DNA of 64,000 nt, taken from Pseudomonadota bacterium (GTDB lineage: Bacteria > Bdellovibrionota_B > Oligoflexia > Oligoflexales > CAIYRB01). The DNA lies in contig JAPLFX010000031.1 of NCBI GenBank assembly GCA_026390445.1, forward strand, positions 31,768 to 95,767, given 5' to 3'. Shown one piece after another: positions 19,189-48,198 of this stretch (the stretch's first letter is position 1; each line of letters begins with the position of its first letter). The notes under the pieces are model-generated. The model was given only the letters and a program-made list of their open reading frames with translations, was not told the origin of the DNA and did not search any database. The position numbers were made by a program, and so were the translations under genes.

Positions 19189-19259
19189 GTCATCGCACCT
19201 AAGTCTCAGGTCCTGCCGCAATTAGATCTGGTCTTCGCCTCTCGCCCGGGAGCAACTCA

Positions 19260-30755: not shown

Positions 30756-31778
30756 TCACGTCACCGTGGAGGCTTCGCTTTCGCCGCTTAACTTGTCCTG
30801 CATCGCCTTCAAGCTACCCATCGACGAGCGGTAAAATAGGTAGGGGATGAATCCGAGCAGGTTCAAGCACAGCTGACCCAGCGCCATGATATTGAAGATA
30901 TTCGCCCCACCGGTCAGGCCGACCATGGTGAACAACTTTTCAAAGGCGAGATGCCCGAGGCCAAGGCCCCCAGGCGCCAGAGGCAAGGCCGTCGTCATGG
31001 TACCGATCGGAAAGATCGTGCCGAACACACTGAACTCTGGCCTTTGCCCAGTGAGACGCTGAGTCAAAAACAGCGCATAAAGCACCGCGCTAGACTGGAT
31101 CACCACCGAAATCCCGACGGTCGCCATCAGGATCAAGGGTTTCTCGCGATAAGCGCGCAAGGCATCGTAGATTTTTTCCACCGTTGAGAACCCCGGCCAG
31201 CCAAGGTTAAGAAACCGCTTGAAGGGATCCTTGCCAGGTTTAAAGGGGAACATGACGACAGCAAAGCCACCCAAGATCGCCGCCAAGCCCGCGCCAATGA
31301 ACACGATCAGCGGGATCATGGGGGGCCGCTCAAGAAAAAACGAAGAATTATACATGATCGCGGAGCCAGCCATGACAAACAGCGCCGCTAAGCCAACAGC
31401 TCGGTCGAGCAGCACGGTCAGCATCGCTCGCGTCTTACCCTGGCTCTGCGATTGATCGCGGATCAAATAGACGGCCTTGACGATGTCGCCACCCACCGCA
31501 CCAGGCATCGTCGTATTAAAGAAGAAGCCGATCAGTTGTAAGTGCAAGGCGCGCGGAAAACTGACATGAAGGTCCAGCCCACGCAGCAACAACCACCAGC
31601 GCAACGTCCCCAGCCCCACGTAGCCAAGGGACCACATCGCTAAATTAGCCGCAAAGATCGCCGGATCATCAATTAAAACACGGAGATGCCTAAAGTCCAG
31701 CTTGTCTGAGTGGCTCAGCCACATCAACAAAGCCGCTACGATGCTCATTTTCAGTAAGGTCTGCAGGAACGTACGCAT
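30756..31778 (-). CDS. lysylphosphatidylglycerol-synthase-TM-like (UPF0104, flippase-like) membrane protein
   Basis: ATG 31778 (MRTFLQTLLK...). Polytopic, with LRWWLLLRGLDLHVSFPRALHLQLIGFFFNTTMPGAVGGDIVKAVYL typical of the family. The 64 upstream ORF codons are probably non-coding. Confidence 0.65.
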   Translation of the reverse strand: MRTFLQTLLKMSIVAALLMWLSHSDKLDFRHLRVLIDDPAIFAANLAMWSLGYVGLGTLRWWLLLRGLDLHVSFPRALHLQLIGFFFNTTMPGAVGGDIVKAVYLIRDQSQSQGKTRAMLTVLLDRAVGLAALFVMAGSAIMYNSSFFLERPPMIPLIVFIGAGLAAILGGFAVVMFPFKPGKDPFKRFLNLGWPGFSTVEKIYDALRAYREKPLILMATVGISVVIQSSAVLYALFLTQRLTGQRPEFSVFGTIFPIGTMTTALPLAPGGLGLGHLAFEKLFTMVGLTGGANIFNIMALGQLCLNLLGFIPYLFYRSSMGSLKAMQDKLSGESEASTVT

Positions 31779-31994
31779 AACCACCTTATACGCTGCATGC
31801 AGGCTGCTTGCCAAGCATGACGCCGGCTCGGGGCCAGCTGATGAAATCTCTTTGGCGCAAAATATTCCATTCATATCAGTGTAGTCCACTCGGACCTTGA
31901 AGAAACGCTTAAACTTCCAAGCGACCCACCGATAGGAACTCATCTGGGTGGCTTGGCACGTCCCAAGCACCCTTTATCCTCAATAGGCCAGTCC

Positions 31995-34193
31995 ATGACC
32001 AGCAGTCTAACCAACAAAAAATGCCGGGTCGTTGTCGTCGATCCCTCGGGACCTGTGCGCCAGATGATGGCTGAGACCATCCGTTCGACCCTGGGCTTTG
32101 AGTCGGTCGAAAGCAAGGCTTCAGTCCAGGATGTACTTTCCCACCTGGAATCAGATAGCGCCGACTGGATCGTCGCACCACTGCAGGCGGACCAACCCGT
32201 CAACGCCCTGCATTTGCTCAAGATATGCTCCGAACACCCTGAACTGCGCGGCATTCGTATCTCACTTCTCGTCACTGAAGAAGAGTCCTATGTGTTACCA
32301 ACGGCCTTCGAGCTAGGATTGTTCTCCTATCACCACAAGCCCGTCACAAAAGATACGCTCAACGCCGATATGAAGGCCTTATTCTCACGCTTTGAGAGCA
32401 AACAATTCAACGAGCCAAAAACCGCGGCGCATTATCTGCGACAGTACCTAAAGACGGTCAAAAACCATGCTGGGTTGGCCGCGTTGGAAAAGAATCTACT
32501 AGAGGTTTACCCGGGTGACCCACAAATTTTGCTGCACCTTGCCGAGCCGCAGTTCCATCTTGGCAATCAAGAGCTGGCGAAAAAGACCCTGCGTCAGGTC
32601 AAACTTGTCGACAAAACTCTATCGGACAAGGTGACAGAGCTGGCGAAAGTTCTGTTTGGCAATCCCGATGCTTTAGCCGCTGAAGGTGACAGCGGCGGCG
32701 GAGCTGGCATCAACATCATTGGCGCCAACACCGCAGTAATCATCGAATCCGACGAATCTACCGCGCGCGCCGTCGAGGATATATTAAAGCAACTCGGCTG
32801 CCAAAACATCCGCATCTTTGCCAATGGCCAGGAAGCTTGGGACTACCTCGAGAAAAATCCGGAGCCGGAGCTCATCATTACCGAGTGGCGAGTCCCGAAA
32901 TTGACCGGTCCACTGCTTATACAGCGCGTGCGACACCACGGCTTTCTCAACGTGCCGATCATTGTCCTGAGCTCGCTACTCAAGCCAGAGGATATGCCCC
33001 TGGTACGCGAAATCAGTGTTGCGGACATCATCCAGAAGCCGATCAACAAAGACGTCTTCGTACCCGCCCTGATTTGGACCATGGCGCAAGAACGCATGCC
33101 GACAGAGCAGATGACGCTGGAACGAAAAATAAGAATGCTGCTCAAAAATAACCGCAAGGCCGATGCCGAGCCGTTAAGGCTGCAGCTATTTGCGGACAAA
33201 CAAACACCAATGGCCCGCAAACGCTTGATCGAAGCCGAGTTCGCCTTTGCCAACAACCAATTCGCGCTTGCTCGCGATGCCGCCATCGAAGCACTTAAAC
33301 AAGCCGGCGATAGCATCCATGTCTTGAACGTCCTAGGCAAGTCCTTCATGCGTTTGAGCGCCTACGACGCCGCCCTCAAGTGTTTCAAAAAGGCCCAGGC
33401 AATGTCGCCACACAACCTCGAACGCCTGTGTCTAATCGCCGAGACCCAGACCGAGCTAGGCGACCATGCCGCGGCCCAGGAAGCGCTCGACAAAGTTACT
33501 GCCATTGATCCTGACTCGGCCCAAACCGTCGAGGCGAAGGTAAATGTCGCAATTACCAAAGGCGACAGTGCTATGGCCAAGAAGATCATGGCGACCTTTG
33601 AGTCCATCGACAATATCGTCGCCTATATGAACAACAAGGCGATCTCCCTAGCAAAGTGCGGCCAGGGGCCTGAGGCCATCGAGCTGTACAATAAAACCCT
33701 GGAATCGATACCCGACGACAATCTCAACCAAAAAGCCATCGTCCTCTACAATCTATCGCTCGGCAAAAGCCGCGACGGAGACTTCGCTGGAGCCATTGCG
33801 CACCTAGAAATCGCCGCCACGATCAAAGAGTCTCGCGTTGCTAAAAAAGTCGCATCATTACTCGATCGCCTAAAGACTGCTCAGGCGACCGGCAAAGACT
33901 TCAAGTTTCGCGGCGTCGCCACGTCCGATCCGGCGAAAGTTACACCTAAGGATGGCGCACCCGACGCAAAAGACGCCCCGAAAGACGAGGCCAAACTGGC
34001 AACCGAAGATGATTTTCGCCGTATGATCGCCGCCGTTGACACAAAACGCGGCGATCTATGTTGCTTCCTTATCTTTCACAACCCAGCCGAGACCGATGCC
34101 CGCATTCCGGCTCTACTGGCCAAATCGCCGCGCTTCCAAACCCGCGTCGCCATAGAGCGCGCCGAAGTCATGCTGCAGCATGACAAGAAGTAG
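31995..34193 (+). CDS. dual degenerate receiver-domain protein with C-terminal TPR array
   Basis: REC1 is RVVVVDPS...DWIVAPLQ...HHKPV, with Ala at the acceptor (32175-32177). REC2 is AVIIESDES...LIITEWRVPKLTG...IQKPI, with Glu at the acceptor (32883-32885). Several TPR-like repeats follow (e.g. GDHAAAQEALDKVTAIDPDS). The start is probably ATG 31995. Confidence 0.7.
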   Translation: MTSSLTNKKCRVVVVDPSGPVRQMMAETIRSTLGFESVESKASVQDVLSHLESDSADWIVAPLQADQPVNALHLLKICSEHPELRGIRISLLVTEEESYVLPTAFELGLFSYHHKPVTKDTLNADMKALFSRFESKQFNEPKTAAHYLRQYLKTVKNHAGLAALEKNLLEVYPGDPQILLHLAEPQFHLGNQELAKKTLRQVKLVDKTLSDKVTELAKVLFGNPDALAAEGDSGGGAGINIIGANTAVIIESDESTARAVEDILKQLGCQNIRIFANGQEAWDYLEKNPEPELIITEWRVPKLTGPLLIQRVRHHGFLNVPIIVLSSLLKPEDMPLVREISVADIIQKPINKDVFVPALIWTMAQERMPTEQMTLERKIRMLLKNNRKADAEPLRLQLFADKQTPMARKRLIEAEFAFANNQFALARDAAIEALKQAGDSIHVLNVLGKSFMRLSAYDAALKCFKKAQAMSPHNLERLCLIAETQTELGDHAAAQEALDKVTAIDPDSAQTVEAKVNVAITKGDSAMAKKIMATFESIDNIVAYMNNKAISLAKCGQGPEAIELYNKTLESIPDDNLNQKAIVLYNLSLGKSRDGDFAGAIAHLEIAATIKESRVAKKVASLLDRLKTAQATGKDFKFRGVATSDPAKVTPKDGAPDAKDAPKDEAKLATEDDFRRMIAAVDTKRGDLCCFLIFHNPAETDARIPALLAKSPRFQTRVAIERAEVMLQHDKK

Positions 34194-34205: not shown

Positions 34206-34448
34206 TCAATAGCTTTGATAGCAGTAAGCGACAGGTATCCCGCCGCAACGAACACGCGCAGGAGCCTCCGTGTAGCCCAAAGCTTGACCGCAGATCGTGT
34301 TGGACGTCGATACACAGGTGTAAACGCCCCACCCACCGATCGGGGGCAAGGTTGGCGGCAGGGTCGGACCCAGTTGGGCCAAGCCTTCACCACTAAGGCC
34401 AGTAAGCATTGCGACGACGAGAAGAATCCGTTGAGCCAGGGGGGACAT
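34206..34448 (-). CDS. small secreted Cys-rich protein (80 aa)
   Basis: ATG 34448 is preceded by GGAG at 8 nt and an AT-rich upstream gap. Signal-like N-terminus MSPLAQRILLVVAMLTGLSGEGLA. The mature part has a PTLPPTLPP segment and 4 Cys. Confidence 0.5.
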   Translation of the reverse strand: MSPLAQRILLVVAMLTGLSGEGLAQLGPTLPPTLPPIGGWGVYTCVSTSNTICGQALGYTEAPARVRCGGIPVAYCYQSY

Positions 34449-34573
34449 GATGCACTCCGCGAAAATTAAGTTTAAGATATCAATAAGATATAAAATATAG
34501 ACCGACCAAGGCCGGCCCGGTACTTTATAATCAAATTAGTGTTTTGTAAATGACTATGATGCCACGTCGCAGT

Positions 34574-36070
34574 CTAGCAACCGCTCTTAAACCAGACCGC
34601 CGTCGCCGCCGCCGTCGCCTCGCCGTCGCTAAGATAGTAAATGCGAAGTCGCACTGCCGACGGTGTCTTGCCGGAGTCGGTGACAACGAACAGATCGGAC
34701 CAAAGGCGTAACTCCTGCGTACCCAAAGCTTGCACCGTCGTCCCCAAAGTAAACGTGAGTTTTTGCATGGTCGGATCCCAGCTTCGCGAGAGATCGGTGA
34801 GTGAGGTGTCGACCATGGCCGCGTTGTAGGGTGCGGCATACTGCATCGGGTCGGTAGCGACTTTGACGGTCTTCAGGCCATCATTGCGGTAATAGTCGAA
34901 ATATACCTCGATGCGATCAAAGACCGTGGCCGCAATCGGTGCGTCCACTTCATCCAGAGGTGGTTGGACGTCCAGTACCACTTCACCGCTGCGGCAAAAC
35001 GGTCTGGTCAATCCATTGGCATCACTGGCCGATGTATAATCCACGGCGGTTGGAGTGCTCCCATCTGTCGCCACGGCAGTGATCTTAGGCGGCATGCTAA
35101 GACGGCGCGCCAAGCGGCGCGGCACCGAGACCTCAGCGCCGCCATTTGGTTGAACCTTAAAGACCGCCACTGCGGCCGCAGGCGGCATACCACCGCTAAA
35201 AGCACTAAATTCATAGCGAGCTGGGCTTGTCTTGCTCAGCCAGCTTGGCAAGGCCCCGATCAAACCAGCTGCCTCAGGCGCGACCTGGTCATCATTTGCC
35301 ACGCGACCAGAACTTTGCCATGGGCCGGTACGACTAAGTGCGACGCCGATCACCTCCGTCTCATCGCGGGCTAGCACCAAGGCCCCAAGTCGGTACAGGC
35401 GCCTCAGGTCAGTGGCAAAAGCTGCCGGATAAGCAGACCGCTGGTAAAATGAATAAAGCAGAGTCGGTGCATCGAAGACAAAGAGCTGGCTGCTAAATGC
35501 CACCCGAGTCACCTGGTTTGGCAGAAGATAGTCGCCAAAGGATGCACTAAACGTCGGCGCAACGTTAAATCCACCGCCGATCGTCGCCGCGATACCTGAG
35601 CTTTGAACTGCGGGTACCCCCTGTTTGTCCAGCGCAATCGGAACGATCCCTAGATCAAAACCGAGGCCCCCCTGATAGACAAACGCAGCCTGTGTGCCAG
35701 GGGTAGAGGTCGCCACGTCGACATCTCCAACCCAGTTAAAGTCTTTAAGCAGGTGCATGGAATAGGATTGCCCTTCGACAAAATGCGCCAAGGGCACTCT
35801 AAAGGCTCCGCTACTATCCAACGGTACTTCTTCTAGAGAAGGACTCGTATGATTGAAGATCCATAGATCATAGCCACGCGCCGGCACATTCGTTGTACCT
35901 AAAGCAAAGCCACCGGTGACGTTGCTACTGCTCAGACTTAAATGCCCGGGGGTACTCGTTGGCGTTGGCGGATCACCGTGGCCTTTTCCCTGCTGCCCGC
36001 AAGCCAGACCAAGGCTGCTTAGCCATAGTGAACGGCTGCTCCAACGCAGCCACAGCTTGAGTTGGCTCAT
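34574..36070 (-). CDS. hypothetical lipoprotein (497 aa), translationally coupled to the CHAT protein
   Basis: ATG 36070-36068 overlaps the upstream TGA (ATGA) and is preceded by GGGGAG. The signal is MSQLKLWLRWSSRSLWLSSLGLACGQQ. No family motif is recognised. Confidence 0.6.
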   Translation of the reverse strand: MSQLKLWLRWSSRSLWLSSLGLACGQQGKGHGDPPTPTSTPGHLSLSSSNVTGGFALGTTNVPARGYDLWIFNHTSPSLEEVPLDSSGAFRVPLAHFVEGQSYSMHLLKDFNWVGDVDVATSTPGTQAAFVYQGGLGFDLGIVPIALDKQGVPAVQSSGIAATIGGGFNVAPTFSASFGDYLLPNQVTRVAFSSQLFVFDAPTLLYSFYQRSAYPAAFATDLRRLYRLGALVLARDETEVIGVALSRTGPWQSSGRVANDDQVAPEAAGLIGALPSWLSKTSPARYEFSAFSGGMPPAAAVAVFKVQPNGGAEVSVPRRLARRLSMPPKITAVATDGSTPTAVDYTSASDANGLTRPFCRSGEVVLDVQPPLDEVDAPIAATVFDRIEVYFDYYRNDGLKTVKVATDPMQYAAPYNAAMVDTSLTDLSRSWDPTMQKLTFTLGTTVQALGTQELRLWSDLFVVTDSGKTPSAVRLRIYYLSDGEATAAATAVWFKSGC

Positions 36071-39000
36071 CGTGGCTCCCCGACGACGCGAAACGACGAC
36101 CAATAGGCGGGGTGATTGAAATACCTTCTGACCACTTTCTGCGCATGGCGCATGGCCTCGGCACGCGACTCACCTGCGGCTAGATAGCGATAAAAGCGCT
36201 TCATCAAAACGGCACTGGCCACGTCGCTGATACGCCAGAGACTAGAGACAACGGTATTGGCTCCGGCGTAAAAAAATGCGCGCTCCATGCCGATGATTTC
36301 ATCCCCAGAGGACAGTCGGCCGAGGCCGCTGTCGCAGGCCGACAGCGTCACTAGATCGGCTCTTGAATCCAAGGCAAAGATATCAGCGACCGAAAGATCG
36401 CCCTCTTCGCCCGACTTTGACGCGAGAAACAACCGCGATTCCGCCGGATTATTGGGCCGGAACTCGGCATGGGTAGCTAAATGCAGCACATCCAATTTGG
36501 GCGCCCATTCGCGCACCGCAGCCTTGGTGGCAGCAGCCCCTTGGCGCTGATCGCGAGCAGGAAAATATCTCCCCATCACCTCGACTTCTTTACTGGCAAA
36601 AGGCAGCGCCTGAGCTGCTGCCGTCTCACCCGTGGGATTTGCCAGGGCGAGGATGCGGGTCGATGCGCCTAGGTGCCGAGGCTTAGGATCAAGAGTAAAG
36701 CGCGCCATCGTCGCACTCGTGAGATAGGACACGGCAAAGCGGTCGATGACATCTTCGCTAGGGCCGAGAGGAAGCGCCGCAAACGGTAAAAAGTGCAGGC
36801 TGCCATGCGGAACAATGGCCAAGTGCTTGGCGGTGCCGATTTGACTTAGCACCGGCGTCAGCAAAAGATCGGCAAGCTCTTTACCAAGATAGTCCGTCGA
36901 TGAGAAGTTCTGCATGAGCTCGCGGTATTCGCGTACTTTCGCGAGTAAATCCTTAGCCGGCATAGGCACGGCCTTGCCGCTGATCTGGCCGTCTATGAGC
37001 CACCAGATCAGGAGGTGATCCGTGGTGACCTGGTACTCGATCAGTGCGGTACCAGGCCCGAGCAGACGGCTGAGTTCCTCCTTGGTGATGGCATCGACAA
37101 GGGAAAAGTTCCCCCACTGCGCCTTTTCTTGGGGATTTGTGGGTACCTTCAGGTGCCTTCGCTGCGTCCCGAGGGCGTCGATAAAAGCCCGCCCACGCCC
37201 GCGCTCGCTAACCGTCCAGGCTTGCTCATATCGCCCTAGTTGGGTCAGTACAGCACTATATCCACCGTACACTTGCTGTACACCCACATCGGAAATAAAG
37301 CCGCTGCGTGAATCCTCTGATTTTAAACCAGCGCTCATCGCCTCAATCACCTTCAATGCCTCGGCGTAAGAGGCAGCGGCCTCGTTTTGAGCGTCACGCT
37401 TATGTTGAGCGGCTGCTATGCCAGCATGTGCCCGCCACACAAAGTCGCGCATCGCCCCCTTGACTGAGATAGCTAGAGCTTTGCGAAAATAAGCCTCAGC
37501 ATCGCCCCACTGTCCTTCTCTCATCGCGATATCGCCAAGGCCAAACTGGCAATACGCTTCATTGTAGACCAAGTGGAGCTCTTCGCTGACAGCTAACGCA
37601 TCCTTTAATAAATCCTTGGCGCGGTTGAAGTCGCCCTTCAAAATAATACTCAGGCCCATATTGCGATGATCAAAAGCAATTGAGCTACGCGACTTTAGGT
37701 CGGTATCGATGCGTAAAGCCGCATCAAAAAAGGCGATCGATTGATCGACCGCACCGTACTCTCGCGCCCAGAAGCCATAGTTGTTGTAAAGCGATGCCAG
37801 CGGACCTTGAAGCTTATACTCCTGCGCTATCTTGACCGCTGCCTGAAACTCGGCAAAGGCTGATTTGTACTGACCAAGCTTACCGGCGATCATCGCCTTC
37901 ATACCCATGGCATCGACCTGTAGACCAACGCGGGCCAGCTGAACCTTTACAAGTGCCGCAGCGGCAATGGTCAACTCATTGCGATCTTTAGCCTCCTGGA
38001 AAAGCCCCGCACGAAAGTAGGCGTTGGTGAGCATCTGTGAAGCGCGCACCCACAGGACCGTTTGCTTAGCACGGTCGATATTCGGAATCACTTCCCGCTC
38101 CAAGATAGCCGACGCTGCATCCAGGTCGCCAATGGTCATCAAGGTGCTGCTCTTGTCGATCAAGACCGAGAGGTAGAGATCCTGTTTCTTTAGCGCCTTA
38201 AAAGCATCTGCTGCTTGGGTATAGTACTCCAGTGCTTTGACGCTATCGCTGAGATCGCGATTGTAAACATTGCCGATGTTTAGAAGCTGATTCGCCGCCT
38301 CATCAGGCTTAACCTTGACGTATAAGCCACGAGCCTGCTCATAAGCCGCCAAGGTGTCCTCGTAGCGATGTTGATTTTCAAAATTAATCGCACGGTATTG
38401 CCAAACCTTGCCGAGCTGATCGGGCATATCCTCGGACTTAAAGACCACTTCGGCCTGGTCTAGCAGCCGACCAGCAACATCCGCTTGACTGCCTTTGACG
38501 GCGATCGCCGCGGCCTCTAGCAGTGATCTAGCGTAGTCAACCGGATCCTTTTCATCCTTTTTGACTCCAGGAGCGGCCGGAGTCTGCACGGCTGGATTCA
38601 AGCGTTCTGCTAGGCGCATTTGAAACGGTAAGGCCCCTTCATAGTCTCGCTTTTGTACCAGAGACTGGACCAAGCCCTTAAGCGCCATGTCTTCGCTATC
38701 ACCCTTTGAAAGTCGCTGCGCGTCGTATAAAGAACGACGATAGAGCACGGCCGCCGCGTCAAAATCCTGATCCGCCTTGGCATCATCGGCCGCATCAAGG
38801 GCTTTGGGCAATTGCTCTTTAGCAAAGGACTCTTCATCTTTACCAGGAATTCCAGGATATCCAAGAACACGGCCCGAAAGCTGCGCCGCAGCTGCGGCTT
38901 CCCCCACCGACGAAGTCGCTAAAGTCGCATAGAACGCCGGCCAAACCGGTGGTCGTTTGCCGTCAGCCATAAAGACCGTCGGAACACCCGCGCTTAGGTG

Positions 39001-42000
39001 CGCCAAGGACAGAAACAGCCACCCATCGTGACCTTCGCCACTGGCGTCGAGATCGCGGTTTGCGCGCTCGACCTTGGCATAAATCACCGCAGTGGCACTC
39101 GGCAAGGTCGACCCTGCAAGGCGCTTTAGGGGAAGATCGCTCTGGCTCGAGCGCGCTCCTTTAAGACCAGCCGCCACTGTGCTTTCCCCTGGCTCGACGT
39201 CGTTTAGCCACAACGGTAGATCGATATGCAATAGATCATAAGGGGTCAAGCGGTCGAGCAGCGGCGCCGGCGCCTCAAGTGCCACCGCTTGCAAGGTACG
39301 CTTGGCATTGGCAGAGGCGAAGGTCGCTGCCGGCGGATCTTTCCCAACGTATCCCAAGCTCCCCTTGCCTAGGCGACGACCCTGAACGAATTCCGGCAGC
39401 AGGTCCAGAGCCGGGGCATACGCTACTAGGCGTTGCTGCAGGAGCCCATTGGCACTTCCTAGCTGTTCCCACGGCACGTCAAACAGCTCTTGATCGGGTA
39501 TGAGATAAACCGTTCCGCCTTGTTCAGGCATTGCTTTGCTTAGACCGGTGGTTTCGAATATCCGAGCATAGGTTGCCGCATCGAGGCTTTGCTTTGGCAA
39601 AACCTTACCGCGTCCCGTGCTGACCTTACCTTTTGCCATCAGCACAGCGTAGACATCGCCGGCGAACGATTTATGCACCCAAAGTGCCGCATCGGTATCA
39701 CCAAGCGCCTTAAAAATCTGTGGCGTGTCGCGTAGCGCCAACAGCTTATGGCTGCGAGCCTGGTCCAAACCGGAGCGCTGAGCCATATCGCTAAGCCGCA
39801 TCAAAGCAAACCGCCGCACCAAGGTCAATGCCACTGCCGCATCCGGATTGGTCCACGCCGCGTCGAGCTGCCCCTCGAATAATTGCCGTGCCAAGCGTCG
39901 ATCCGGCGGCGTGCGCATCACACCACCCGAAGCAATCCAGCGGTCCAGGGCCTCGAAGGCTTTCGTGGTGCTACCAGCTTGGGCGAGACTCTTCCACTGA
40001 GTTTCGCCTTCTGTCGCCACACCTGGTACGAAATGCTGGTACGCCAGGACCGCACCGAGCGATGTTGCGGGCGGCGCAGCGATGGCTTTATAAACCGCAA
40101 GAGACTCTTCGAGACCGGCTTTAGCTGCTGTATCCGTCTTCGCGCCACCTACCGTTAAACGCAGCGATGAGGCGAGTTCTAAGCTAGCCGCCAGCGGCCG
40201 GCCTTGTGCTTTGACGCCACTTTGGTAGATCGGCCGCAGCTGTGCGGACGTGGCGTCAAGATCGGCTAGTTCACCGGCCAGCTCCTTGCTGCCAAGTAAC
40301 GTCAGACTCGCTAGCCGTAGCGCCACCCGTGCCCGGTTGATACGGTTGGTTAATTCGCCGGGCGAACTCAGTTTTTGGTCAGCACCTGCTGCCACTTTCG
40401 CCGCAAAGGCGGCGGCCGCATACGCTAACTTTGCACCACTGTGAAATCCGGCCTTTAGGCGCAGGTCACCGATGGCATTATCGACCAGAGCCTCACTCTC
40501 GGCCAGATGCTTTTTCTCTTGGCCCGAGGCATCCTGCAAAACCTTCAAGCGCTCCTCGTTGGTGGCGAGCGCCAAGTCGAGTCGCCCCATCTTTTCGTAG
40601 ATTTCCGCCCGAAATGACAGAATAAGCAACCGTCTCGTGAGGAAATCAAAACCCTTGGCCGCCGAGCTACCACCGCCTAAAGCGATCTTAATCGACGTAT
40701 CCTTGCTCTTCTTCGCCTCCTCCGCCGCCAACTTATCCGGGCTTTGCAGCACCAAGTTGAGCGCGGCCTCGGCCTTGTCAAACAGCACGAGCGCACCGCT
40801 ATAGTCGTGGCGCATGAAGGCGCAGTAACCGAGGTTGGATAGGGTCCCGACTAAATTCACCTCTTGTCCGGTACGTTCCTGGATGCGACTCAGGCGCTCA
40901 TACAAGGTCGCGGCTTCAATGAAGTCGCCCTGTTCGCGCCGACTCAATGCCAATGCATCTAGCGAGTAAGCAATGCGTTCATCTTTGCCAACCCGTTCCC
41001 AGGCAGCCAAGGCTTGCCGCTGTAAATCTGCAGCCAAGCCCAGCTCATCGATTTGAAAGGCCGAGCGCCCGGCGCGCTCAAACAAAATCGCTTCAGCTCG
41101 AGCGTCGCGCATGGGGATCACTGAGAGTAGATGCACCCTCTGCAAATAATAGTCCAAGCACTTTTTATAGTTGTGCAGGGAATAGTAAGCTTGGCCGAGA
41201 TTTTGCGCCAACCCAGCCCGTTCAACCGACGCGGGCTGACTAAGAAAATAGGCGTTTTGATACGCCTCAATCGCCAACTCGCGCCAGTCTGGGTCACCGG
41301 CACCAAAGAAATCCCGCACTAAGCTACCGCGTTGGCTTAGCGAGCCCACCATAGACCCGGACCGGTAGTATTGCCAAACGGTGAAGTTCTTCTGCATGTA
41401 CAGCCAACCAAGCGTTTGATGGATCTGTAAAATCTGCCCGTTGAGTTGGCGCGCCCTTTCGACCAGTTCGGTGGCCTCATCGATCGCCGCAAGGCGCGCG
41501 CTAGGACCTACGGCTTGATCGATGGTGTAGGTTTTCGCATAGCCGTAGATATAGACCCATTCGGCACTCTCCGGCTGCTCGCTGACATGATGGGCGTACT
41601 CTTCGACCAAGTTACTGAGTGTCTGGTTCATAAATGCAGCATCGATGCGCCCACGGTGGGCACTGATATTTCGCTCATCTAGGGCCAAAACCTGCGCATA
41701 GACCTTCATTGCCAAGCCGGGTTCCCGCTGCTTTAGGAGGTCTTCGCCGCGACTTAGGTAGAATGCAAAGAGCAGTTCTTTGGCCTGAGCGATATACTCC
41801 GGACGGCCGCGCTCTAGACCTTGAGCCAAGCGCTTGAGGGACGACTCGGCCAAGGCAAAGCGCTCTGCCTTTAGATCGAGTGGTAACAGGCGCGTTGCCG
41901 CCTCCACCATGATTTCCGGTGACTCCGGATAAAGATCAATGATTTGGCGAAGCTCATTGGCAGCGACCGCCTCCTTTCCCTGAGCCAAGAAGATGTCTGC

Positions 42001-43749
42001 GATCCGCATGTGCGCAAGAGCAGGCATCAGTGGAATGCCCTTAGCAGACACGCGCAAGGCCACCAATTGCTCCAGCCGGTCATTATGCCGTTCAAGCAGA
42101 CTTATCGCCGCATGGGCCGCCCGCCGTGCGACCTCGCGTTGGTCTGGATACGTAGCAGCAACCTCCTTGAGGACTTTGACAGCCGTATCATCATCGGCTG
42201 TCGCCGGTGTGATGACGCCCGCATAGTAAGCGGCCTCAGCCGCCAGTCTACGGTCTCCACCGTAGCTCTTGGCCACCTGCGCAAGGAGCTGATTGGCCGC
42301 AAAGTATTGCCGCTGTGCGGCCAGGATTTGCGCTTTGAGTAGCTCAGCCTGACCAATGACCCGCTTTGAGGATTGACTCCTTTTTGCGATAGTCTCCGTA
42401 CGGACCAGTAACTCCACCAGTTTTTGTGTCTGCTCAACGGTGAGATTCTCGGTGAACTTTGGATAACCAATCGGCTCTAGGTCCAACAAGATCATGGCAA
42501 GGTCAGCCAGTGCGTGGATCGCCGGATCAAAGCCCGATTGCGCCTTAAGCTTGGCGTAGACCCACTTCGCTTCGACAGTGCGCCCATGCTGCACGACCCA
42601 CTGCAATTCGCGCAGGGCACACTCCGCAGCAAGGTCGTCTTGATGCGCCAAGGCAAAGGCAGCCTCGGCGCGACGGAGTATCAAGGACTTTTCATATTCA
42701 TTTGAACGCTGATCAAACTGTGCCAACACCACGGCCATATCAGAACTTAGCTTGCTCTGACCAAATTCAGGAAAGCGAAAGATATCCAGACCCAATTCGG
42801 TCTTGAGAGCGGCATACAAATAGGGTCCGCGAATCTGCGGCGAATACGCGGCAAAGGACGCGGCGGTGAGCGGCACGATCAAGTAGTTTTCGCGTTGCTT
42901 CGCCTGCCTCTGGAGCGCTAAATCGAGCCGCCAAATGGTCGGTTGATCATCACCGTCTAGCTTTCCATCACCGTTGGTATCATCGCTGTAGCGAATAAAC
43001 AGCAGGGACTTGCCATCACCGGTAAACCTCGGTTGCCCATCCTGCAGCAGCCCACCAGCGGTCACTTGTTCGATTTTGCGCGTGTCCATATGATAAATGT
43101 AAAGGGCGCCCAGGTTGACATAGGCCACCATCGTCCCATCAGGAGACACGCTAGGTTGGTCTCCTTTCAGGTCAGCGAGCGGCTCGGGCGTCAGCGTATC
43201 CAGGTCCGCCACCATCAACGCTGGCTGCTTGTCTCCAGGCAAGCGCGCCGCGAATACCACGCGGTCGCTACCAGGGAACCACGAGGGGTTCGTGTCCTCG
43301 GTTTGTGGCGAGTTAATATCAAGTACGGTCCCTTCGGGATTGCCAAAGAACTTCGCCCACGACCTGCCCAATTTCAGAACATGCACATCGCCAGCAGCAT
43401 CGGTACGCCGCGAAATAAACGCAACGTATTTGCCATCTGGACTCAGCACCGGGGCAAAGTCATCGGCCGAATGATTGGTCACCAGACGACCAAATCCACC
43501 GACCGTGGGCTTCACCCAAAGATCCTTATTGCCACCGCGGTCGGAGGTGTAAAAGACATACTCGCCGTTGGGCGACAGATCAGGCGAAAAATTTGATTCG
43601 CTGCCCGCAGTCACTTGCTCGGGCGTGTAAAAGCTCAAACCTGGCGTGTAAGACTCCGGGTGAAAATCCTCCAGATAGCGCCGGCTCTGGCATGCTCCTG
43701 CTAGGAGCACAACCACCATGCATACACAGAGCCGCCCGCTGCTGCTCAT
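36067..43749 (-). CDS. giant predicted lipoprotein: TolB-type PD40 beta-propeller + extended TPR arrays + degenerate CHAT-like module + C-terminal catalytic CHAT domain
   Basis: ATG 43749 overlaps the upstream TGA (ATGA). The signal is MSSSGRLCVCMVVVLLAGAC. PD40 repeats include FSPDLSPNGEYVFYTSDRGGNKDLW, FAPVLSPDGKYVAFISRR, PSVSPDGTMVAYV and PRFTGDGKSLLFI (about 42930-43640). Hundreds of residues of TPR-like helices follow. The middle CHAT-like module (about 38880-39530) contains TVYLIPDQELFDVPWEQL. The C-terminal CHAT has HLAIVPHGSLHFLPFAAL, LHLATHAEF (His codon 36489-36491) and VTLSACDSG (Cys codon 36334-36336). Confidence 0.75.
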   Translation of the reverse strand: MSSSGRLCVCMVVVLLAGACQSRRYLEDFHPESYTPGLSFYTPEQVTAGSESNFSPDLSPNGEYVFYTSDRGGNKDLWVKPTVGGFGRLVTNHSADDFAPVLSPDGKYVAFISRRTDAAGDVHVLKLGRSWAKFFGNPEGTVLDINSPQTEDTNPSWFPGSDRVVFAARLPGDKQPALMVADLDTLTPEPLADLKGDQPSVSPDGTMVAYVNLGALYIYHMDTRKIEQVTAGGLLQDGQPRFTGDGKSLLFIRYSDDTNGDGKLDGDDQPTIWRLDLALQRQAKQRENYLIVPLTAASFAAYSPQIRGPYLYAALKTELGLDIFRFPEFGQSKLSSDMAVVLAQFDQRSNEYEKSLILRRAEAAFALAHQDDLAAECALRELQWVVQHGRTVEAKWVYAKLKAQSGFDPAIHALADLAMILLDLEPIGYPKFTENLTVEQTQKLVELLVRTETIAKRSQSSKRVIGQAELLKAQILAAQRQYFAANQLLAQVAKSYGGDRRLAAEAAYYAGVITPATADDDTAVKVLKEVAATYPDQREVARRAAHAAISLLERHNDRLEQLVALRVSAKGIPLMPALAHMRIADIFLAQGKEAVAANELRQIIDLYPESPEIMVEAATRLLPLDLKAERFALAESSLKRLAQGLERGRPEYIAQAKELLFAFYLSRGEDLLKQREPGLAMKVYAQVLALDERNISAHRGRIDAAFMNQTLSNLVEEYAHHVSEQPESAEWVYIYGYAKTYTIDQAVGPSARLAAIDEATELVERARQLNGQILQIHQTLGWLYMQKNFTVWQYYRSGSMVGSLSQRGSLVRDFFGAGDPDWRELAIEAYQNAYFLSQPASVERAGLAQNLGQAYYSLHNYKKCLDYYLQRVHLLSVIPMRDARAEAILFERAGRSAFQIDELGLAADLQRQALAAWERVGKDERIAYSLDALALSRREQGDFIEAATLYERLSRIQERTGQEVNLVGTLSNLGYCAFMRHDYSGALVLFDKAEAALNLVLQSPDKLAAEEAKKSKDTSIKIALGGGSSAAKGFDFLTRRLLILSFRAEIYEKMGRLDLALATNEERLKVLQDASGQEKKHLAESEALVDNAIGDLRLKAGFHSGAKLAYAAAAFAAKVAAGADQKLSSPGELTNRINRARVALRLASLTLLGSKELAGELADLDATSAQLRPIYQSGVKAQGRPLAASLELASSLRLTVGGAKTDTAAKAGLEESLAVYKAIAAPPATSLGAVLAYQHFVPGVATEGETQWKSLAQAGSTTKAFEALDRWIASGGVMRTPPDRRLARQLFEGQLDAAWTNPDAAVALTLVRRFALMRLSDMAQRSGLDQARSHKLLALRDTPQIFKALGDTDAALWVHKSFAGDVYAVLMAKGKVSTGRGKVLPKQSLDAATYARIFETTGLSKAMPEQGGTVYLIPDQELFDVPWEQLGSANGLLQQRLVAYAPALDLLPEFVQGRRLGKGSLGYVGKDPPAATFASANAKRTLQAVALEAPAPLLDRLTPYDLLHIDLPLWLNDVEPGESTVAAGLKGARSSQSDLPLKRLAGSTLPSATAVIYAKVERANRDLDASGEGHDGWLFLSLAHLSAGVPTVFMADGKRPPVWPAFYATLATSSVGEAAAAAQLSGRVLGYPGIPGKDEESFAKEQLPKALDAADDAKADQDFDAAAVLYRRSLYDAQRLSKGDSEDMALKGLVQSLVQKRDYEGALPFQMRLAERLNPAVQTPAAPGVKKDEKDPVDYARSLLEAAAIAVKGSQADVAGRLLDQAEVVFKSEDMPDQLGKVWQYRAINFENQHRYEDTLAAYEQARGLYVKVKPDEAANQLLNIGNVYNRDLSDSVKALEYYTQAADAFKALKKQDLYLSVLIDKSSTLMTIGDLDAASAILEREVIPNIDRAKQTVLWVRASQMLTNAYFRAGLFQEAKDRNELTIAAAALVKVQLARVGLQVDAMGMKAMIAGKLGQYKSAFAEFQAAVKIAQEYKLQGPLASLYNNYGFWAREYGAVDQSIAFFDAALRIDTDLKSRSSIAFDHRNMGLSIILKGDFNRAKDLLKDALAVSEELHLVYNEAYCQFGLGDIAMREGQWGDAEAYFRKALAISVKGAMRDFVWRAHAGIAAAQHKRDAQNEAAASYAEALKVIEAMSAGLKSEDSRSGFISDVGVQQVYGGYSAVLTQLGRYEQAWTVSERGRGRAFIDALGTQRRHLKVPTNPQEKAQWGNFSLVDAITKEELSRLLGPGTALIEYQVTTDHLLIWWLIDGQISGKAVPMPAKDLLAKVREYRELMQNFSSTDYLGKELADLLLTPVLSQIGTAKHLAIVPHGSLHFLPFAALPLGPSEDVIDRFAVSYLTSATMARFTLDPKPRHLGASTRILALANPTGETAAAQALPFASKEVEVMGRYFPARDQRQGAAATKAAVREWAPKLDVLHLATHAEFRPNNPAESRLFLASKSGEEGDLSVADIFALDSRADLVTLSACDSGLGRLSSGDEIIGMERAFFYAGANTVVSSLWRISDVASAVLMKRFYRYLAAGESRAEAMRHAQKVVRRYFNHPAYWSSFRVVGEPR

Positions 43750-44351
43750 AACCTGCCTGCGCCATGCGACGGCTTTTGCACCCATGACCCCGTGTCCTCT
43801 TGATACCAGACCCCACCAGCGGCGCTGTCCCGCAGCATCTTGGCGTAGGTCATCTTGACGTTTGGCAGGTCGCGAGCGGAGAGGTGTTCATTAGCATCGA
43901 TGATCCGCTGCCAGATGGCTTGACGGTCACGGTTTTCTTCTGCCGCAATCTGTGCCGCCAAGGCATAGTCCTTGGTTGCAGGCGCCTCCCCCTTGACCAA
44001 GTGCCGAGGTAACAAGACGACAGTCCCTCCTGCCGCTTCGCCTAGGATCTGCTGCTGCTTGAGTTCGTCGATATCATCCTGATTGAATAGCTGATTTTGC
44101 CGTGCATCGAGCGCGCCCTGCTTGCTGGCTGAAACTTTGACGGGAGCCGTATCGACCTTGGTTTTGAGGCCGCGGACTGACGAGGCAAGGATCAAATCGT
44201 CATCGAGTTCTTTATAGGTGCCCATGACTTGGTTTTCCAAGGCCGTACGCTGACTCGTCACATCAAAATTGAAGGTACAGCCCGCCAATCCCATTCCAGC
44301 AATCATCAACCATCCATTTATTTCGCGCCGCCTCACCCTGTCCTCCTTCAC
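43746..44351 (-). CDS. YdbL-like (DUF1318) lipoprotein with N-terminal extension
   Basis: The C-terminal half ILGEAAGG...IAAEENRDRQAIWQRIIDAN...GGVWYQEDTGSWVQK matches the DUF1318/YdbL pattern as I recall it. The lipobox is MIAGMGLAGC. GTG 44351 overlaps the upstream TGA (GTGA). The alternative GTG 44336 is preceded by AAGGAGG. Confidence 0.6.
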   Translation of the reverse strand: MKEDRVRRREINGWLMIAGMGLAGCTFNFDVTSQRTALENQVMGTYKELDDDLILASSVRGLKTKVDTAPVKVSASKQGALDARQNQLFNQDDIDELKQQQILGEAAGGTVVLLPRHLVKGEAPATKDYALAAQIAAEENRDRQAIWQRIIDANEHLSARDLPNVKMTYAKMLRDSAAGGVWYQEDTGSWVQKPSHGAGRL

Positions 44352-47300
44352 CCGGCTCCACTGGCAGCGGGAGCTGATTGATCTTTCACATTTTGCAGTA
44401 ACTGACTGATCGGGAAGTGACTTAGCTTAGGTAAAGGAATCGGCGCGCCGAGAAGTCGCAGATCGACATCCATACCGACCTCGCCATTTTTGAGCGGAAT
44501 GATCACCTGCCGCACTTCGCCAAAGGCCAGGGCCTTGCGGATATCGCCAATGGTTGGATTCTGCTCAAATGGATCGACGAAATACAAGATCATGCGCAAT
44601 TGCTCTTTGCCAATCGACGAGATGTCCAGACCTCCGGCGATATCATTCGAACGCATGTCAAAGACCAGATGCAGGGTCGCATCGATGTAGGGGTTGGAAA
44701 ATAGTTCAGACGACGAGGCCTTGCCGCTGAGGCTTGGGAAGCGTTCGATCAACTTTCTCGTATCAAGCCGCGTCAAATGCACTGAGGCGCGAAGGCTTTG
44801 CGGAATCGAACTTGGCACCGGATTTGACGCATCAAAGGCTAGCTGGAAGTCGCCCTCGATCTTGCCACCGAGAAAGCCGATGACGAACTGGTTTAGAGCG
44901 AACCAATTCTGGCGCAGCTCCATGTCAAACTCCATCTTCGAGAACTCCAGATTGGCGACTTCAAGGCGCTGGATCGAAAGCGGCCGCCTTTCTGGGTAGA
45001 ACGGCCTGATCGAGCCGTAATCAACCGTCGCCACCAGATTGCTTCCGGGCATAGGCCGGCTATCGCTCTTAGCCATGTAGGTCTGCACGGCATGAGCCAT
45101 GGACACCGCATCAGTATCCACTGCCGCATCACCGTCACTCGCAACGACGACCTCAGGAAGTGCCTGGCTTTGGCCAGGCAGCGAGGACCCAGCTGCGGCC
45201 ACCGTGGCAGCTTGATCTACTGGTAAGGTCGAAGTGGTCGCAGTCGTTGCTGGAGTCGGCTTTGGTATCTTGACCACTTGCCGAAATGGAATCTGGCCAT
45301 TCATCTTCTCTAGGGTGAGCAAGGCGGGATCATTTGGCTGTTTACCTGGCACCATCACATTGAAATGGGCAAACGACACGTAACCGTCAACGCCCACAGT
45401 ACGCATATCATCGCTATCTACGGCCAACCTAAGTCCCATGCGTCCGGAAGTCTTGATGCCGCCGGGGAGCTTCTCCTCGCCATTGTGTACGACCTGCGTA
45501 TCCAGTTTGGCATGAAGGCTTTGTGGTTGAAAATCAGCACCAATCCCTGCCGTCGCCCCAAGCTGAACGACGGTGCCGAACTCTGGCAGCCGCAGGGTTA
45601 AATCGTGCAGTACAAGATTGTTCATTTGCTCCTGGCTCACCCGACTGGTCAGTTGAAAATCGGCGACGGGATGAGGCAAAACGCCATCCATCGCGACTTT
45701 TCCCACAAACAATTTAGTTTCTACTTTGGTCAACATACGATGCAGCAGAGCATTCACCTGGCTGATGTCAACCGCCCCGTCGATGGTATTGTCGATACTC
45801 AGGTCAAACGCGAAGTGATCGACTGCCACCGGTTGCGGCGGCTTTTCCTCGGCAGCTGCAACGGACGCGGCCGCAGTCAACGGTGGAGCAGGTGCAGCCG
45901 CTGGAGCAGGTGTAGCTGCGTTGCCTTTGGTGACCGGGCCTGGGCTCTCAGCAGGCTTCGCCTGAGGCTTTGGCAAGATCAGAGTCAGCCTATCAAACTT
46001 TTGCGTGAAATCGAGCTTCTGTTGATGCGTCGAGCCCGCAAGGCTAAAACGCGTATCAAGGCCCTTGAGATCGATGTGATCAAGCGGCAACTTAGCATTG
46101 AGTTTGCTCACATTGAGCTGCGTGCTGAATTGAATATCCGCTTGTTCCACCAGCTCCTTAGGCGGCGTCGTGCGAGGATTCGGCAGGCGACCACGCAAGC
46201 CGAACTGAAGATCCACCGCACCCGACAGTTGGGTCGGCATCACCGCTGCGAGGTTCAGCGGTTCACTGAGTGGCAGCAGTATGGCATGAAGCTTGGCCAG
46301 TGAATTGAGACGTGCCTGCAGATTGGACCGAACGTGTGTACAGCTATCCAGGCAGTCGGCCATGGCGCTAAGCTCGGCAAGTCCTGTCAGCTCCAAGTTA
46401 GCGTTGAGCCCCAGGTGCTCCAGATCTTGGCGACCCTCGGCGTCGATATCTAAAAACAACGGCACATCGACCGGTGCGATATGCTCGCCTTTGGCCGTGA
46501 CGTGAGCTGCCTGGACATTCACCTTTAAGATTGGTGCCACCATCTGCGGCCAGAGGGCCCGAGCTGTGACCTTGGTGGTAAAGTCAGCTACACCGGCCGA
46601 CACCAAACCAAGTGGAGTTTGCTTTTCGGCTGTCACTTTGGGCAGATTGAGATCGAGGGCGACATCGACTTGTGAACCACCACCGCTTAGAGCTGGTCCG
46701 ACCGCAATGGATAAAGATCCATCCAGGGGCTCCATCGCAACCCCGGTCGCCGGGAGGTCGACGAAGACCTCGCTCAGCCACAGGGTTCCCGACACGTAAG
46801 GTAGGATCAAGTCCTTCGCCGCCGCTTTAAGCTTTTCTGGTTCGACCGTGCCGTTGATCTTAAAGTCTTCCAGGGAGATTTCTCCGGAGGCTTTGAGATC
46901 TGGCACAAAGGGCTTAGCGAGGGACGCCAGCTGCTTTAGATCTAAGTGCAGTTGCTGCTTCAATTTTAGCGTGATCTGCTCCATACGGCTGTCGGCCACG
47001 CTGATCGACCCGCCCAGGTTATAGCTGATGGCATCGGCTAGTTCGGCTTCCACGGTATCGATGCGTATGCCCTTTAAATCATCGCTGAGATTGACCGCGA
47101 CTTTGACCAAAGTCCTGAGGTCCTTGTAGCTCGCTGCAGGCGTCGCTACGTTGATGACCTGCGTCGCCAAATCGACCTTAGCCCGGGTCAGATTAGATAG
47201 TTCAAAGCGCAGTCCCAGTGCTGACTCGAGGCTGAGCGACCGCACCAACTTGGCTCCTGGTGCCGGCTCAGCATCAAGGGTGAGAGTCAAAGGACGTTCA

Positions 47301-48106
47301 AAGCTGCTCATCGAATTCAGCCAGATCGAGCTGACATTACCAAACCAGGTGAGGCCCAGGTCCAAAGAAAACCCTGAGGTGTTGATCTGTTGCGTGATCC
47401 GCCCCTGGTCCTCCTTGGTCAGGGCGAGCACTAGGTTTTCCATCCCGACATTTTGCACCAAGAGGTGGACCGGCAGATAAAGCAATGCCGGATCAAAGGG
47501 CAACAGTCCCTTGCCGACCGGACCGGGCGCCTTCACCGGTTCTGGTGCCGGCGGGCCAACCAGCTCTTTAGGCTTGGGGAAATGCGCGTCGCGATACGCC
47601 ATGATCCCAGCGAAATTGAAGATGCCGTCGGTCTGTTTTAAATAGATGTCAGGATGTTCAAGTTGCAGCGCCCGCAGCTCGATACGGCCAGCGAATAGCT
47701 TGGGTATACTGTATTCGATACGCAGGCGCTTAAACGCGGCCAGAACCTTTGGCTCCAGGGCACCGCCGGCCAATACGCCGCGGCTATCGCCCACGAGTGG
47801 TGGCGTATAGCTGACATCGAGTAGACGCAAACCGCTGAGCACATCGAATTCGACGGCACCGATCACTAGGCGTCCGCCGGTCTGGACGGCCGCCTGCTCG
47901 GTGAGCAGGTCTTTAATCCGCCCTGGTGTCAGATAGACTTTGATCCCACCATAAACAGCGGCAACGCTGGCAACGCCAGCGATGAATCCCCAGCCCAATA
48001 CGCGGGCGACGATCATGCGCAAGCGAGTACGACGCAACCAAGGCTTGCGTTTAACTGCAAGCTCGGGCGACTCGTTGCTGGTTGTAGTGTCGTCGGTCGT
48101 GGTCAT
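44348..48106 (-). CDS. AsmA-family (YdbH/TamB-like) inner-membrane-anchored envelope-spanning protein
   Basis: N-terminal anchor MIVARVLGWGFIAGVASVAAVYGG followed by an AsmA-type start (LVIGAVEFDVLSGLRLLDVSY). The body is long, beta-rich and low in Cys, with a central Pro/Ala-rich insert. It lies directly upstream of a DUF1318 gene, as in E. coli ydbH-ynbE-ydbL. Confidence 0.5.
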   Translation of the reverse strand: MTTTDDTTTSNESPELAVKRKPWLRRTRLRMIVARVLGWGFIAGVASVAAVYGGIKVYLTPGRIKDLLTEQAAVQTGGRLVIGAVEFDVLSGLRLLDVSYTPPLVGDSRGVLAGGALEPKVLAAFKRLRIEYSIPKLFAGRIELRALQLEHPDIYLKQTDGIFNFAGIMAYRDAHFPKPKELVGPPAPEPVKAPGPVGKGLLPFDPALLYLPVHLLVQNVGMENLVLALTKEDQGRITQQINTSGFSLDLGLTWFGNVSSIWLNSMSSFERPLTLTLDAEPAPGAKLVRSLSLESALGLRFELSNLTRAKVDLATQVINVATPAASYKDLRTLVKVAVNLSDDLKGIRIDTVEAELADAISYNLGGSISVADSRMEQITLKLKQQLHLDLKQLASLAKPFVPDLKASGEISLEDFKINGTVEPEKLKAAAKDLILPYVSGTLWLSEVFVDLPATGVAMEPLDGSLSIAVGPALSGGGSQVDVALDLNLPKVTAEKQTPLGLVSAGVADFTTKVTARALWPQMVAPILKVNVQAAHVTAKGEHIAPVDVPLFLDIDAEGRQDLEHLGLNANLELTGLAELSAMADCLDSCTHVRSNLQARLNSLAKLHAILLPLSEPLNLAAVMPTQLSGAVDLQFGLRGRLPNPRTTPPKELVEQADIQFSTQLNVSKLNAKLPLDHIDLKGLDTRFSLAGSTHQQKLDFTQKFDRLTLILPKPQAKPAESPGPVTKGNAATPAPAAAPAPPLTAAASVAAAEEKPPQPVAVDHFAFDLSIDNTIDGAVDISQVNALLHRMLTKVETKLFVGKVAMDGVLPHPVADFQLTSRVSQEQMNNLVLHDLTLRLPEFGTVVQLGATAGIGADFQPQSLHAKLDTQVVHNGEEKLPGGIKTSGRMGLRLAVDSDDMRTVGVDGYVSFAHFNVMVPGKQPNDPALLTLEKMNGQIPFRQVVKIPKPTPATTATTSTLPVDQAATVAAAGSSLPGQSQALPEVVVASDGDAAVDTDAVSMAHAVQTYMAKSDSRPMPGSNLVATVDYGSIRPFYPERRPLSIQRLEVANLEFSKMEFDMELRQNWFALNQFVIGFLGGKIEGDFQLAFDASNPVPSSIPQSLRASVHLTRLDTRKLIERFPSLSGKASSSELFSNPYIDATLHLVFDMRSNDIAGGLDISSIGKEQLRMILYFVDPFEQNPTIGDIRKALAFGEVRQVIIPLKNGEVGMDVDLRLLGAPIPLPKLSHFPISQLLQNVKDQSAPAASGAG

Positions 48107-48170: not shown

Positions 48171-48198
48171 GGCAAAAAACACCTAGGTGCTTTTTGCC
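48171..48198 (-). terminator. rho-independent-type terminator after pckA
   Basis: ggcaaaaaacacctaggtgctttttgcc is a near-perfect long hairpin with A/T runs in its arms. It begins 12 nt downstream of the pckA stop and lies upstream of the 48106 start. Confidence 0.55.

Follow-up and report, generated by a model that had tools for sequence, protein, structure and literature searches.

Does a tight run of genes in a lake bacterium of the class Oligoflexia encode one machine of the cell envelope, or do its genes share a transcript and little else? We asked this of a stretch of 64,000 nucleotides (nts) of contig JAPLFX010000031.1, here called the window, in which four genes follow one another on the minus strand from 34574 to 48106. 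A model for such a machine exists in E. coli, where ydbH-ynbE-ydbL encode an AsmA-like intermembrane bridge, YdbH-YnbE, and its chaperone, YdbL (PMC11126948, PMC13464000). A first-pass annotation, made from the window's letters alone, had read the four genes as a YdbH-YdbL-type module produced together with a giant lipoprotein and an orphan lipoprotein as one envelope-spanning assembly. What we retained of that assembly is a conserved core of three genes, not four, and the family of the giant also exists without the other two. We conclude, with a probability of about 0.55, that genes 1 to 3 are one conserved, cotranslated envelope module of Oligoflexia with proposed roles as bridge, docking partner, and scaffold. 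That the three genes work together in the envelope is very probable; that their products form a single physical assembly we infer from gene order. The genes are the following (aa, amino acids; ORF, open reading frame).

44348-48106, minus strand: gene 1 (ORF), AsmA-like protein of 1252 aa
43746-44336, minus strand: gene 2, 196-aa lipoprotein form of YdbL; the ORF extends to an alternative GTG at 44351
36067-43749, minus strand: gene 3, the giant lipoprotein of 2560 aa (2572 aa with a start at 43785)
34574-36070, minus strand: gene 4 (ORF to 36103), predicted lipoprotein of 498 aa, Cys24

Conservation of the gene order

With the gene-2 family as the query, a scan of genomes gave 24 loci, mostly in Oligoflexales, Pseudobacteriovorax, and metagenome-assembled genomes (MAGs) of Bdellovibrionota. 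The closest locus, at 94% identity, is from a lake MAG. The order AsmA-like gene, DUF1318 (YdbL-family) gene, giant, all on one strand, was found in 23 of the 24 genome loci and also in the metagenome loci L001, L003, and L006; the AsmA-like call in L006 is a precomputed Pfam AsmA match alone, which tblastn and our own Pfam scan did not recover. The two junctions had the same median gap, −4 nt; the gap ranged from −32 to +87 nt between genes 1 and 2 and from −38 to +52 nt between gene 2 and the giant, and the DUF1318-giant junction was most often a 4-nt overlap. Because the linkage persists down to 25-30% identity to the window, recent shared ancestry alone does not explain it. In 11 metagenome cases, the longest contigs with matches to the giant and to DUF1318 were equally long. 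The one genome locus without the trio, L029, has a long DUF1318 gene followed by DUF4412, sucC, and valS, and no AsmA-like ORF in the ∼600 nt upstream to the contig end.

The four chained minus-strand coding sequences of the first-pass annotation are in place, as are the three motifs on which it based their stop/start coupling: GTGA at 44348-44351 and ATGA at 43746-43749 and 36067-36070. The first motif, however, is probably not the junction. A perfect AAGGAGG lies directly 3′ of the gene-1 stop, and GTG 44336 comes 5 nt further on; translation from this GTG yields MRRREINGWLMIAGMGLAGC, and the orthologs share that start. Since both observations favor GTG 44336, gene 2 probably starts there rather than at the GTG within GTGA, and genes 1 and 2 are more likely to be separated by an 11-nt spacer, which holds a Shine-Dalgarno sequence, than to overlap. 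For the giant there are two possible starts: ATG 43749, which produces the ATGA overlap and is shared by eight orthologous loci, and ATG 43785. Gene 4, preceded by GGGGAG, starts at 36070 and overlaps the gene-3 stop via ATGA.

Across the class, it is the first three genes that are syntenic; gene 4 accompanies them in two lineages only. Its homologs were confined to two loci, L008 (92%) and L020 (25%), where they immediately follow the giant, and it had no match in Pfam, NCBIfam, PADLOC, or the PDB. Its leader ends in GLAC at Cys24. Gene 4, which had been counted as a member of the unit, is thus a lineage-variable accessory outside the conserved core.

The products of the three core genes

The protein of gene 1 has a single strong hydrophobic segment in a hydropathy scan (residues 31-52, nt 47951-48016), preceded by the Arg/Lys-rich RKPWLRRTRLR, and its orthologs share this N-terminal anchor feature. 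Among 20 orthologs, Pfam AsmA (PF05170) matches 13, at best with 1.7e-14, and Pfam DUF748 matches 10, at best with 1.4e-12; the L017 protein reaches 42.5 bits for AsmA (cutoff, 29.8) on model positions 422-523. The window protein itself matches DUF748 at 3e-6 (residues 41-173 on model positions 19-137, below the cutoff) and AsmA at E = 0.016 in its C-terminal part. The N- and C-terminal matches are colinear with the DUF748 and AsmA models. A family hidden Markov model (HMM) gave a weak match to the N terminus of E. coli AsmA (15.3 bits), NCBIfam gave a sub-threshold match alone (the Leptospira hypothetical family LIC_11026), and a profile of the 20 orthologs found no match in the PDB. Because the orthologs match both AsmA and DUF748, we assign gene 1 to the AsmA-like superfamily at the level of the family. 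The first product's membrane anchor and AsmA-like family were therefore correctly foreseen, and the 1252-aa protein finds its place through its orthologs even though it is itself sub-threshold. Its best-conserved part is the C-terminal ∼200 residues (1051-1250, nt 44357-44956), with a conservation of 0.57-0.64 versus ∼0.40 elsewhere.

The claim of a YdbH-type protein had to be abandoned. PF11739 (Pfam DctA-YdbH) was absent from all 20 orthologs, and comparison with E. coli YdbH gave a probability of 0.4% in hhalign and −3.1 bits in hmmsearch. The other half of the proposed YdbH-YdbL-type module was borne out, with two differences: there is no separate ynbE, and the YdbL protein is itself a lipoprotein. 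Two parts of the gene-2 protein need to be distinguished.

44169-44279, minus strand: N-module of gene 2, residues 20-56; 37 nearly invariant residues directly after the lipobox Cys
43773-44072, minus strand: YdbL/DUF1318 domain of gene 2, residues 89-188, separated from the N-module by a variable linker

The first-pass annotation had placed this product, which it counted as 201 aa, in DUF1318, and it does belong there: it scored 35.5 bits for PF07027 against a cutoff of 27. Alignment with E. coli YdbL by hhalign gave a probability of 93.7% (E = 1.9e-7) over the whole mature YdbL, residues 24-107. In an AlphaFold 2 (AF2) model, the domain has a pLDDT (predicted local distance difference test score) of ∼90, and its sole significant Foldseek match was the YdbL crystal structure 28oj (TM score, 0.84; probability, 1.00). 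By profile and by predicted fold, then, gene 2 is a true YdbL/DUF1318 protein. Residues E60, R61, L68, and N72 of E. coli YdbL bind the YnbE helix (PMC13464000); they align with the invariant D137 and R138 and with I145 and N149 of the gene-2 protein.

The leader of the gene-2 protein ends in the lipobox LAGC at Cys20 (nt 44277-44279), and this Cys is invariant in 31 homologs. The mature protein has ∼176 residues, including a 70-residue N-terminal extension. Its N-module, with the consensus C-[TSA]-F-N-F-x-V-T-S-Q-R-T-A-L-E-N-Q-V-M-G-x-Y-K-E-L-D-D-D, is better conserved than the YdbL domain and lies where ynbE lies in ydbH-ynbE-ydbL. The gap between genes 1 and 2, in the range given above, is too short to hold a separate ynbE. 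A single-sequence phmmer search with the N-module against 1.84 billion representatives returned 41 matches, which were the N termini of ∼170- to 220-aa proteins or truncated fragments, plus one repeat protein that is spurious; the search revealed no YnbE-like protein that stands on its own.

The giant begins with a lipobox, followed by a PD40 propeller, TPRs, a vestigial CHAT-like domain, a second block of TPRs, and a CHAT domain.

43690-43692, minus strand: Cys20 of the lipobox AGAC
42760-43632, minus strand: PD40 propeller, residues ∼40-330
38830-39552, minus strand: vestigial CHAT-like domain, residues ∼1400-1640
36079-36888, minus strand: CHAT domain, residues 2288-2557
36469-36471, minus strand: His2427 of the CHAT dyad, in HLATHA
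36334-36336, minus strand: Cys2472 of the CHAT dyad, in LSACDSG

This is the PD40-TPR-CHAT architecture that had been described before, and Pfam matches support it: CHAT at 3.1e-66 (224 bits; cutoff, 24) and TPR_12 at 5.3e-21. The best PDB sequence matches of the propeller are TolB proteins (7e-9 to 4e-6). Lipoprotein-type leaders had also been assigned to genes 2 to 4, and we find the same (LAGC, AGAC, and GLAC); lipoboxes and signal peptides were called by eye and by a simple rule. In the linked clade nearly all giants have the lipobox Cys, and several unlinked giants have plain signal peptides. Metagenomes hold ∼65 full-length homologs of the giant (2,400-2,900 aa), labeled Deltaproteobacteria, Oligoflexales, Nitrospinae, or KSB1. 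Of 87 family members, 78 retain the CHAT His/Cys dyad. It is lost in one subclade (L023, L025, L026, L028, and L030; also P0028, P0036, and P0038), in which the giants are shorter, at ∼2400-2540 aa. The internal second CHAT-like domain gives a duplicated [TPR-CHAT] layout, strong in Nitrospinae-type proteins (up to 129 bits; P0037 to P0050) and vestigial in the clade of the window.

Proposed roles of the trio and alternative readings

If the three products act together, the AsmA-like protein would be an inner-to-outer-membrane bridge of the kind that transfers phospholipids; a bridge is suggested because the protein's length matches those of TamB and YhdP. Its conserved C-terminal ∼200 residues would dock on the lipid-anchored gene-2 protein, which would merge in one chain the role of YnbE, the outer-membrane tether, with that of YdbL, the helix-binding chaperone. 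This merger is proposed from position and architecture only, because the N-module occupies the place of ynbE and the gap between genes 1 and 2 is too short for a further gene. The giant would be a periplasmic scaffold, tethered to the outer membrane, that places or controls the bridge, and in most lineages it may cleave a bridge component. The proteolytic role is suggested because the dyad is intact and because DegP degrades free YdbL in E. coli (PMC13464000).

A bolder version of this mechanism would make the locus a new bridge machine, with gene 2 as a natural YnbE-YdbL fusion and the giant as a built-in regulator whose CHAT domain cleaves a bridge component. At the outer membrane, the groove of the AsmA-like protein would be capped by the lipid-anchored β-strand and an acidic helix of the gene-2 protein, with the helix held in cis by the YdbL domain. 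The TolB-like propeller and the TPR solenoids would place the bridge in the envelope, and CHAT would be a dedicated protease controlling intermembrane lipid flow. We consider this version unlikely.

Several observations weigh against the trio as a single module with these roles. The window's own gene 1 scores 26 and 14.5 bits, below the Pfam cutoffs, and an AF2 model of its residues 53-1252, built from 8 sequences, is unreliable (pLDDT, 44; predicted TM score [pTM], 0.28), with nearly all of the chain in long β-strands; Foldseek matches of this unreliable model in the PDB were meaningless (FAS, ushers, and LptD). Similarity of the N-module to YnbE was not found by Pfam, which was empty at E ≤ 10, or by hhalign against YnbE (0.16%). 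One locus, L005, has a long DUF1318 gene (82.6 bits) and a giant of 2890 aa but lacks a recognizable AsmA-like gene next to them. In other phyla, giants occur without the AsmA/YdbL pair, beside unrelated genes. Finally, the subclade that lost the dyad still has the AsmA-like and DUF1318 genes upstream of the giant; because linkage is kept there without the dyad, the shared function cannot depend on proteolysis.

The giants that occur alone would fit a division of labor in which genes 1 and 2 are a self-sufficient lipid-bridge module and the giant shares their promoter only, doing an unrelated job such as Tol-like work or proteolytic sensing or signaling. The family of the giant is older and wider than the linkage: the giant stands alone in Nitrospinae-type genomes (L002 and L004), follows an MCP-type gene and precedes plsB in L035 and L036, and follows valS in L037. 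A periplasmic TPR-CHAT protein in signaling also has a precedent, DdvA (PMC11506125). On the other hand, the stop/start overlaps of the DUF1318 gene and the giant persist in 25 loci to ∼25-30% identity, the giants of the linked clade are specifically those that turned into lipoproteins, and in L005 the DUF1318 gene and the giant have stayed together although no AsmA-like gene adjoins them. On balance, unrelated jobs seem unlikely.

The same locus, L005, is what recommends a different partnership, one in which the YdbL-like lipoprotein serves the giant as helix-binding chaperone, anchor, or inhibitor and gene 1 is a looser associate. There the DUF1318 gene lies directly upstream of the giant; the 4-nt overlap that prevails at this junction points the same way, as does the relationship of YdbL, a helix binder, to the ClpP handle region (PMC13464000). 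The experimentally known partners of YdbL are, however, components of the YdbH-YnbE bridge only (PMC11126948, PMC13464000). In addition, the AsmA-like gene is immediately upstream in all but one of the genome loci, and its C terminus is its best-conserved part, as expected of a docking site. We judge this partnership decidedly improbable and prefer the reading of genes 1 to 3 as one module.

The genomic setting agrees with this preference in one further respect. TPR-CHAT proteins often occur in anti-phage or programmed-death systems, and the operon might accordingly be a periplasmic surveillance device in conflict or defense. The combination of CHAT and TPR is typical of craspase/Csx29 (NCBIfam Csx29, 5.6e-8, sub-threshold) and of DdvA, and the locus has a weak, domain-level PADLOC match to BovA (3.7e-7). 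Yet the PADLOC matches (BovA and TPR) define no system, and genes 1, 2, and 4 had no system-level match. The locus lies among core genes (pckA, RNR, and PBP4), with pckA upstream in at least eight loci, and looks vertically inherited; no mobile-element genes are near it; and one subclade has lost the catalytic dyad. A role in defense is thus highly improbable. The flanking features of the operon are listed below.

48171-48198, minus strand: 3′ hairpin of pckA, which bounds the operon upstream; stem of 12 bp, −22.3 kcal/mol, z = −4.5
34499-34518, minus strand: terminator-like hairpin with a T-rich tail, inside the AT-rich gap; −14.7 kcal/mol, z = −2.4
34206-34448, minus strand: 80-aa Cys-rich ORF, doubtful or lineage-specific, outside the unit
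31953-34193, plus strand: response-regulator-TPR gene, 746 aa (Response_reg, 1.9e-20, plus TPRs), convergent to the operon

Both boundaries drawn in the first-pass annotation, the pckA hairpin and the AT-rich gap, are supported. The identity of pckA is clear (Pfam PEPCK_ATP, 5.6e-210), and none of 200 shuffled sequences folded as well as its hairpin, which has no canonical U-tail after the stem. The gap at 34449-34573 has 37.6% GC versus 56.3% for the cluster, and the hairpin within it is likely to be the end of the operon transcript. A scan for internal promoters found 6 sigma-70-like sites versus 6.9 expected from shuffles, a scan that is uninformative for this phylum. Scans of the window for Rfam families and tRNAs gave no matches. 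The 80-aa ORF, which had been presented as a secreted peptide, had no match in Pfam, NCBIfam, or PADLOC, and it is disrupted in the closest, 94%-identical relative: compared with window positions 34206-34530, L008 (19730-19930) lacks ∼220 nt, a stretch that takes in the hairpin and the beginning of the ORF, from its ATG through the first ∼56 codons, so that the last 24 codons alone are common to the two.

Some neighbors recur. The response-regulator-TPR gene, which is probably not part of the operon, is convergent downstream of the giant also in L003, L008, L013, L016, L020, L022, and L031. Another neighbor, in the window (30756-31970, minus strand) as well as in L001 and L031, is a gene for a membrane-lipid modifier, the lysyl-phosphatidylglycerol-synthase transmembrane domain. 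In L006, a "Deltaproteobacteria" MAG with the trio, the lipoprotein maturation genes lgt and lspA (18805-19605 and 21388-21981) are 1-4 kb downstream of the giant. At L005 9399-9986 and 6631-9389, where the DUF1318 gene directly precedes the giant, the three upstream ORFs (433, 123, and 360 aa) belong to no family. The MCP-type gene of L035 (5333-7912) and L036 (5426-8008) encodes a HAMP/MCP-signal protein of ∼860 aa and, in L036, overlaps the start of the giant; plsB, for the glycerol-3-phosphate acyltransferase of phospholipid synthesis, is convergent after the giant at 17163-19766 in L035 and at 15877-18471 in L036. A 4.24-Mb genome, that of L002, carries a 313-aa protein with an AsmA-like N terminus only (18056-18997, minus strand; DUF748, 1e-11), convergent to the unlinked giant.

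Significance and comparison with known systems

AsmA-like bridge proteins are the leading candidates for the transport of phospholipids to the outer membrane of Gram-negative bacteria. To our knowledge, E. coli is the only species for which outer-membrane partners and regulators of such bridges are known (TamA, YnbE, and YdbL). Here, throughout one bacterial class, a different AsmA-like protein is found together with a lipid-anchored YdbL; this YdbL retains the ligand-binding residues of the E. coli protein, and the pair is tied to a giant exported TPR-CHAT scaffold. The locus therefore offers three leads: YdbL-type helpers may extend beyond YdbH, the roles of YnbE and YdbL may be merged in one protein, and an envelope lipid bridge may be the target of a caspase-like protease. 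It also gives the large, uncharacterized PD40-TPR-CHAT family its first functional context. The comparative genomics is robust, and the mechanism is a proposal; we class the trio as a variant form of the AsmA-like/YdbL module whose giant partner had not been described. The first-pass annotation knew of no described system with this composition, and neither do we: literature searches for AsmA-like proteins with CHAT, for CHAT with PD40 and lipoproteins, and for DUF1318 found nothing relevant and no account of the combination.

Of the systems that are described, ydbH-ynbE-ydbL is like the locus in that an anchored AsmA-like gene precedes a DUF1318/YdbL gene in one operon, a lipoprotein element separates the AsmA-like gene from the YdbL domain, and the YdbL fold and ligand-binding residues are conserved. 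The differences are as clear. Gene 1 encodes 1252 aa versus 879 aa for YdbH and has neither PF11739 nor similarity to YdbH; there is no separate ynbE, and the N-module is without detectable similarity to YnbE; E. coli YdbL is soluble, periplasmic, and of ∼87 residues, whereas the gene-2 protein is lipidated and extended; and a gene for a 2560-aa lipoprotein is coupled to the pair.

In length (1252 versus 1259 and 1266 aa), single N-terminal anchor, and predicted β-rich periplasmic body, gene 1 resembles TamB and YhdP, although the gene-1 family profile had no similarity to either. TamB likewise relies on an outer-membrane partner encoded in its operon, TamA; unlike tamB-tamA, the operon here has no gene for an Omp85 partner, and the partners are lipoproteins.

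The giant's propeller recalls TolB, which has a periplasmic PD40 β-propeller as well, in the giant at the N terminus. Only the propeller blades match, however: TIGR02800 gave 68.5 bits versus an equivalog cutoff of 343, the TolB N-terminal domain and tol-pal neighbors are absent, and the propeller makes up ∼12% of the giant.

The rest of the giant, in which TPRs lead up to a CHAT domain that has a His/Cys dyad, is predicted to lie outside the cytoplasm and is like DdvA of Myxococcus xanthus, a transmembrane anti-sigma factor of ∼1000 aa with periplasmic TPR-CHAT that is encoded in a defense island (PMC11506125). DdvA is the only characterized periplasmic TPR-CHAT protein; more broadly, the likeness in TPR-CHAT extends to separase, craspase/Csx29, and HetF. 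The giant differs from DdvA in being a lipoprotein of 2560 aa that carries a PD40 propeller at its N terminus and has the [TPR-CHAT] arrangement in duplicate, in lacking a sigma factor as partner, and in its place in an envelope operon of the core genome.

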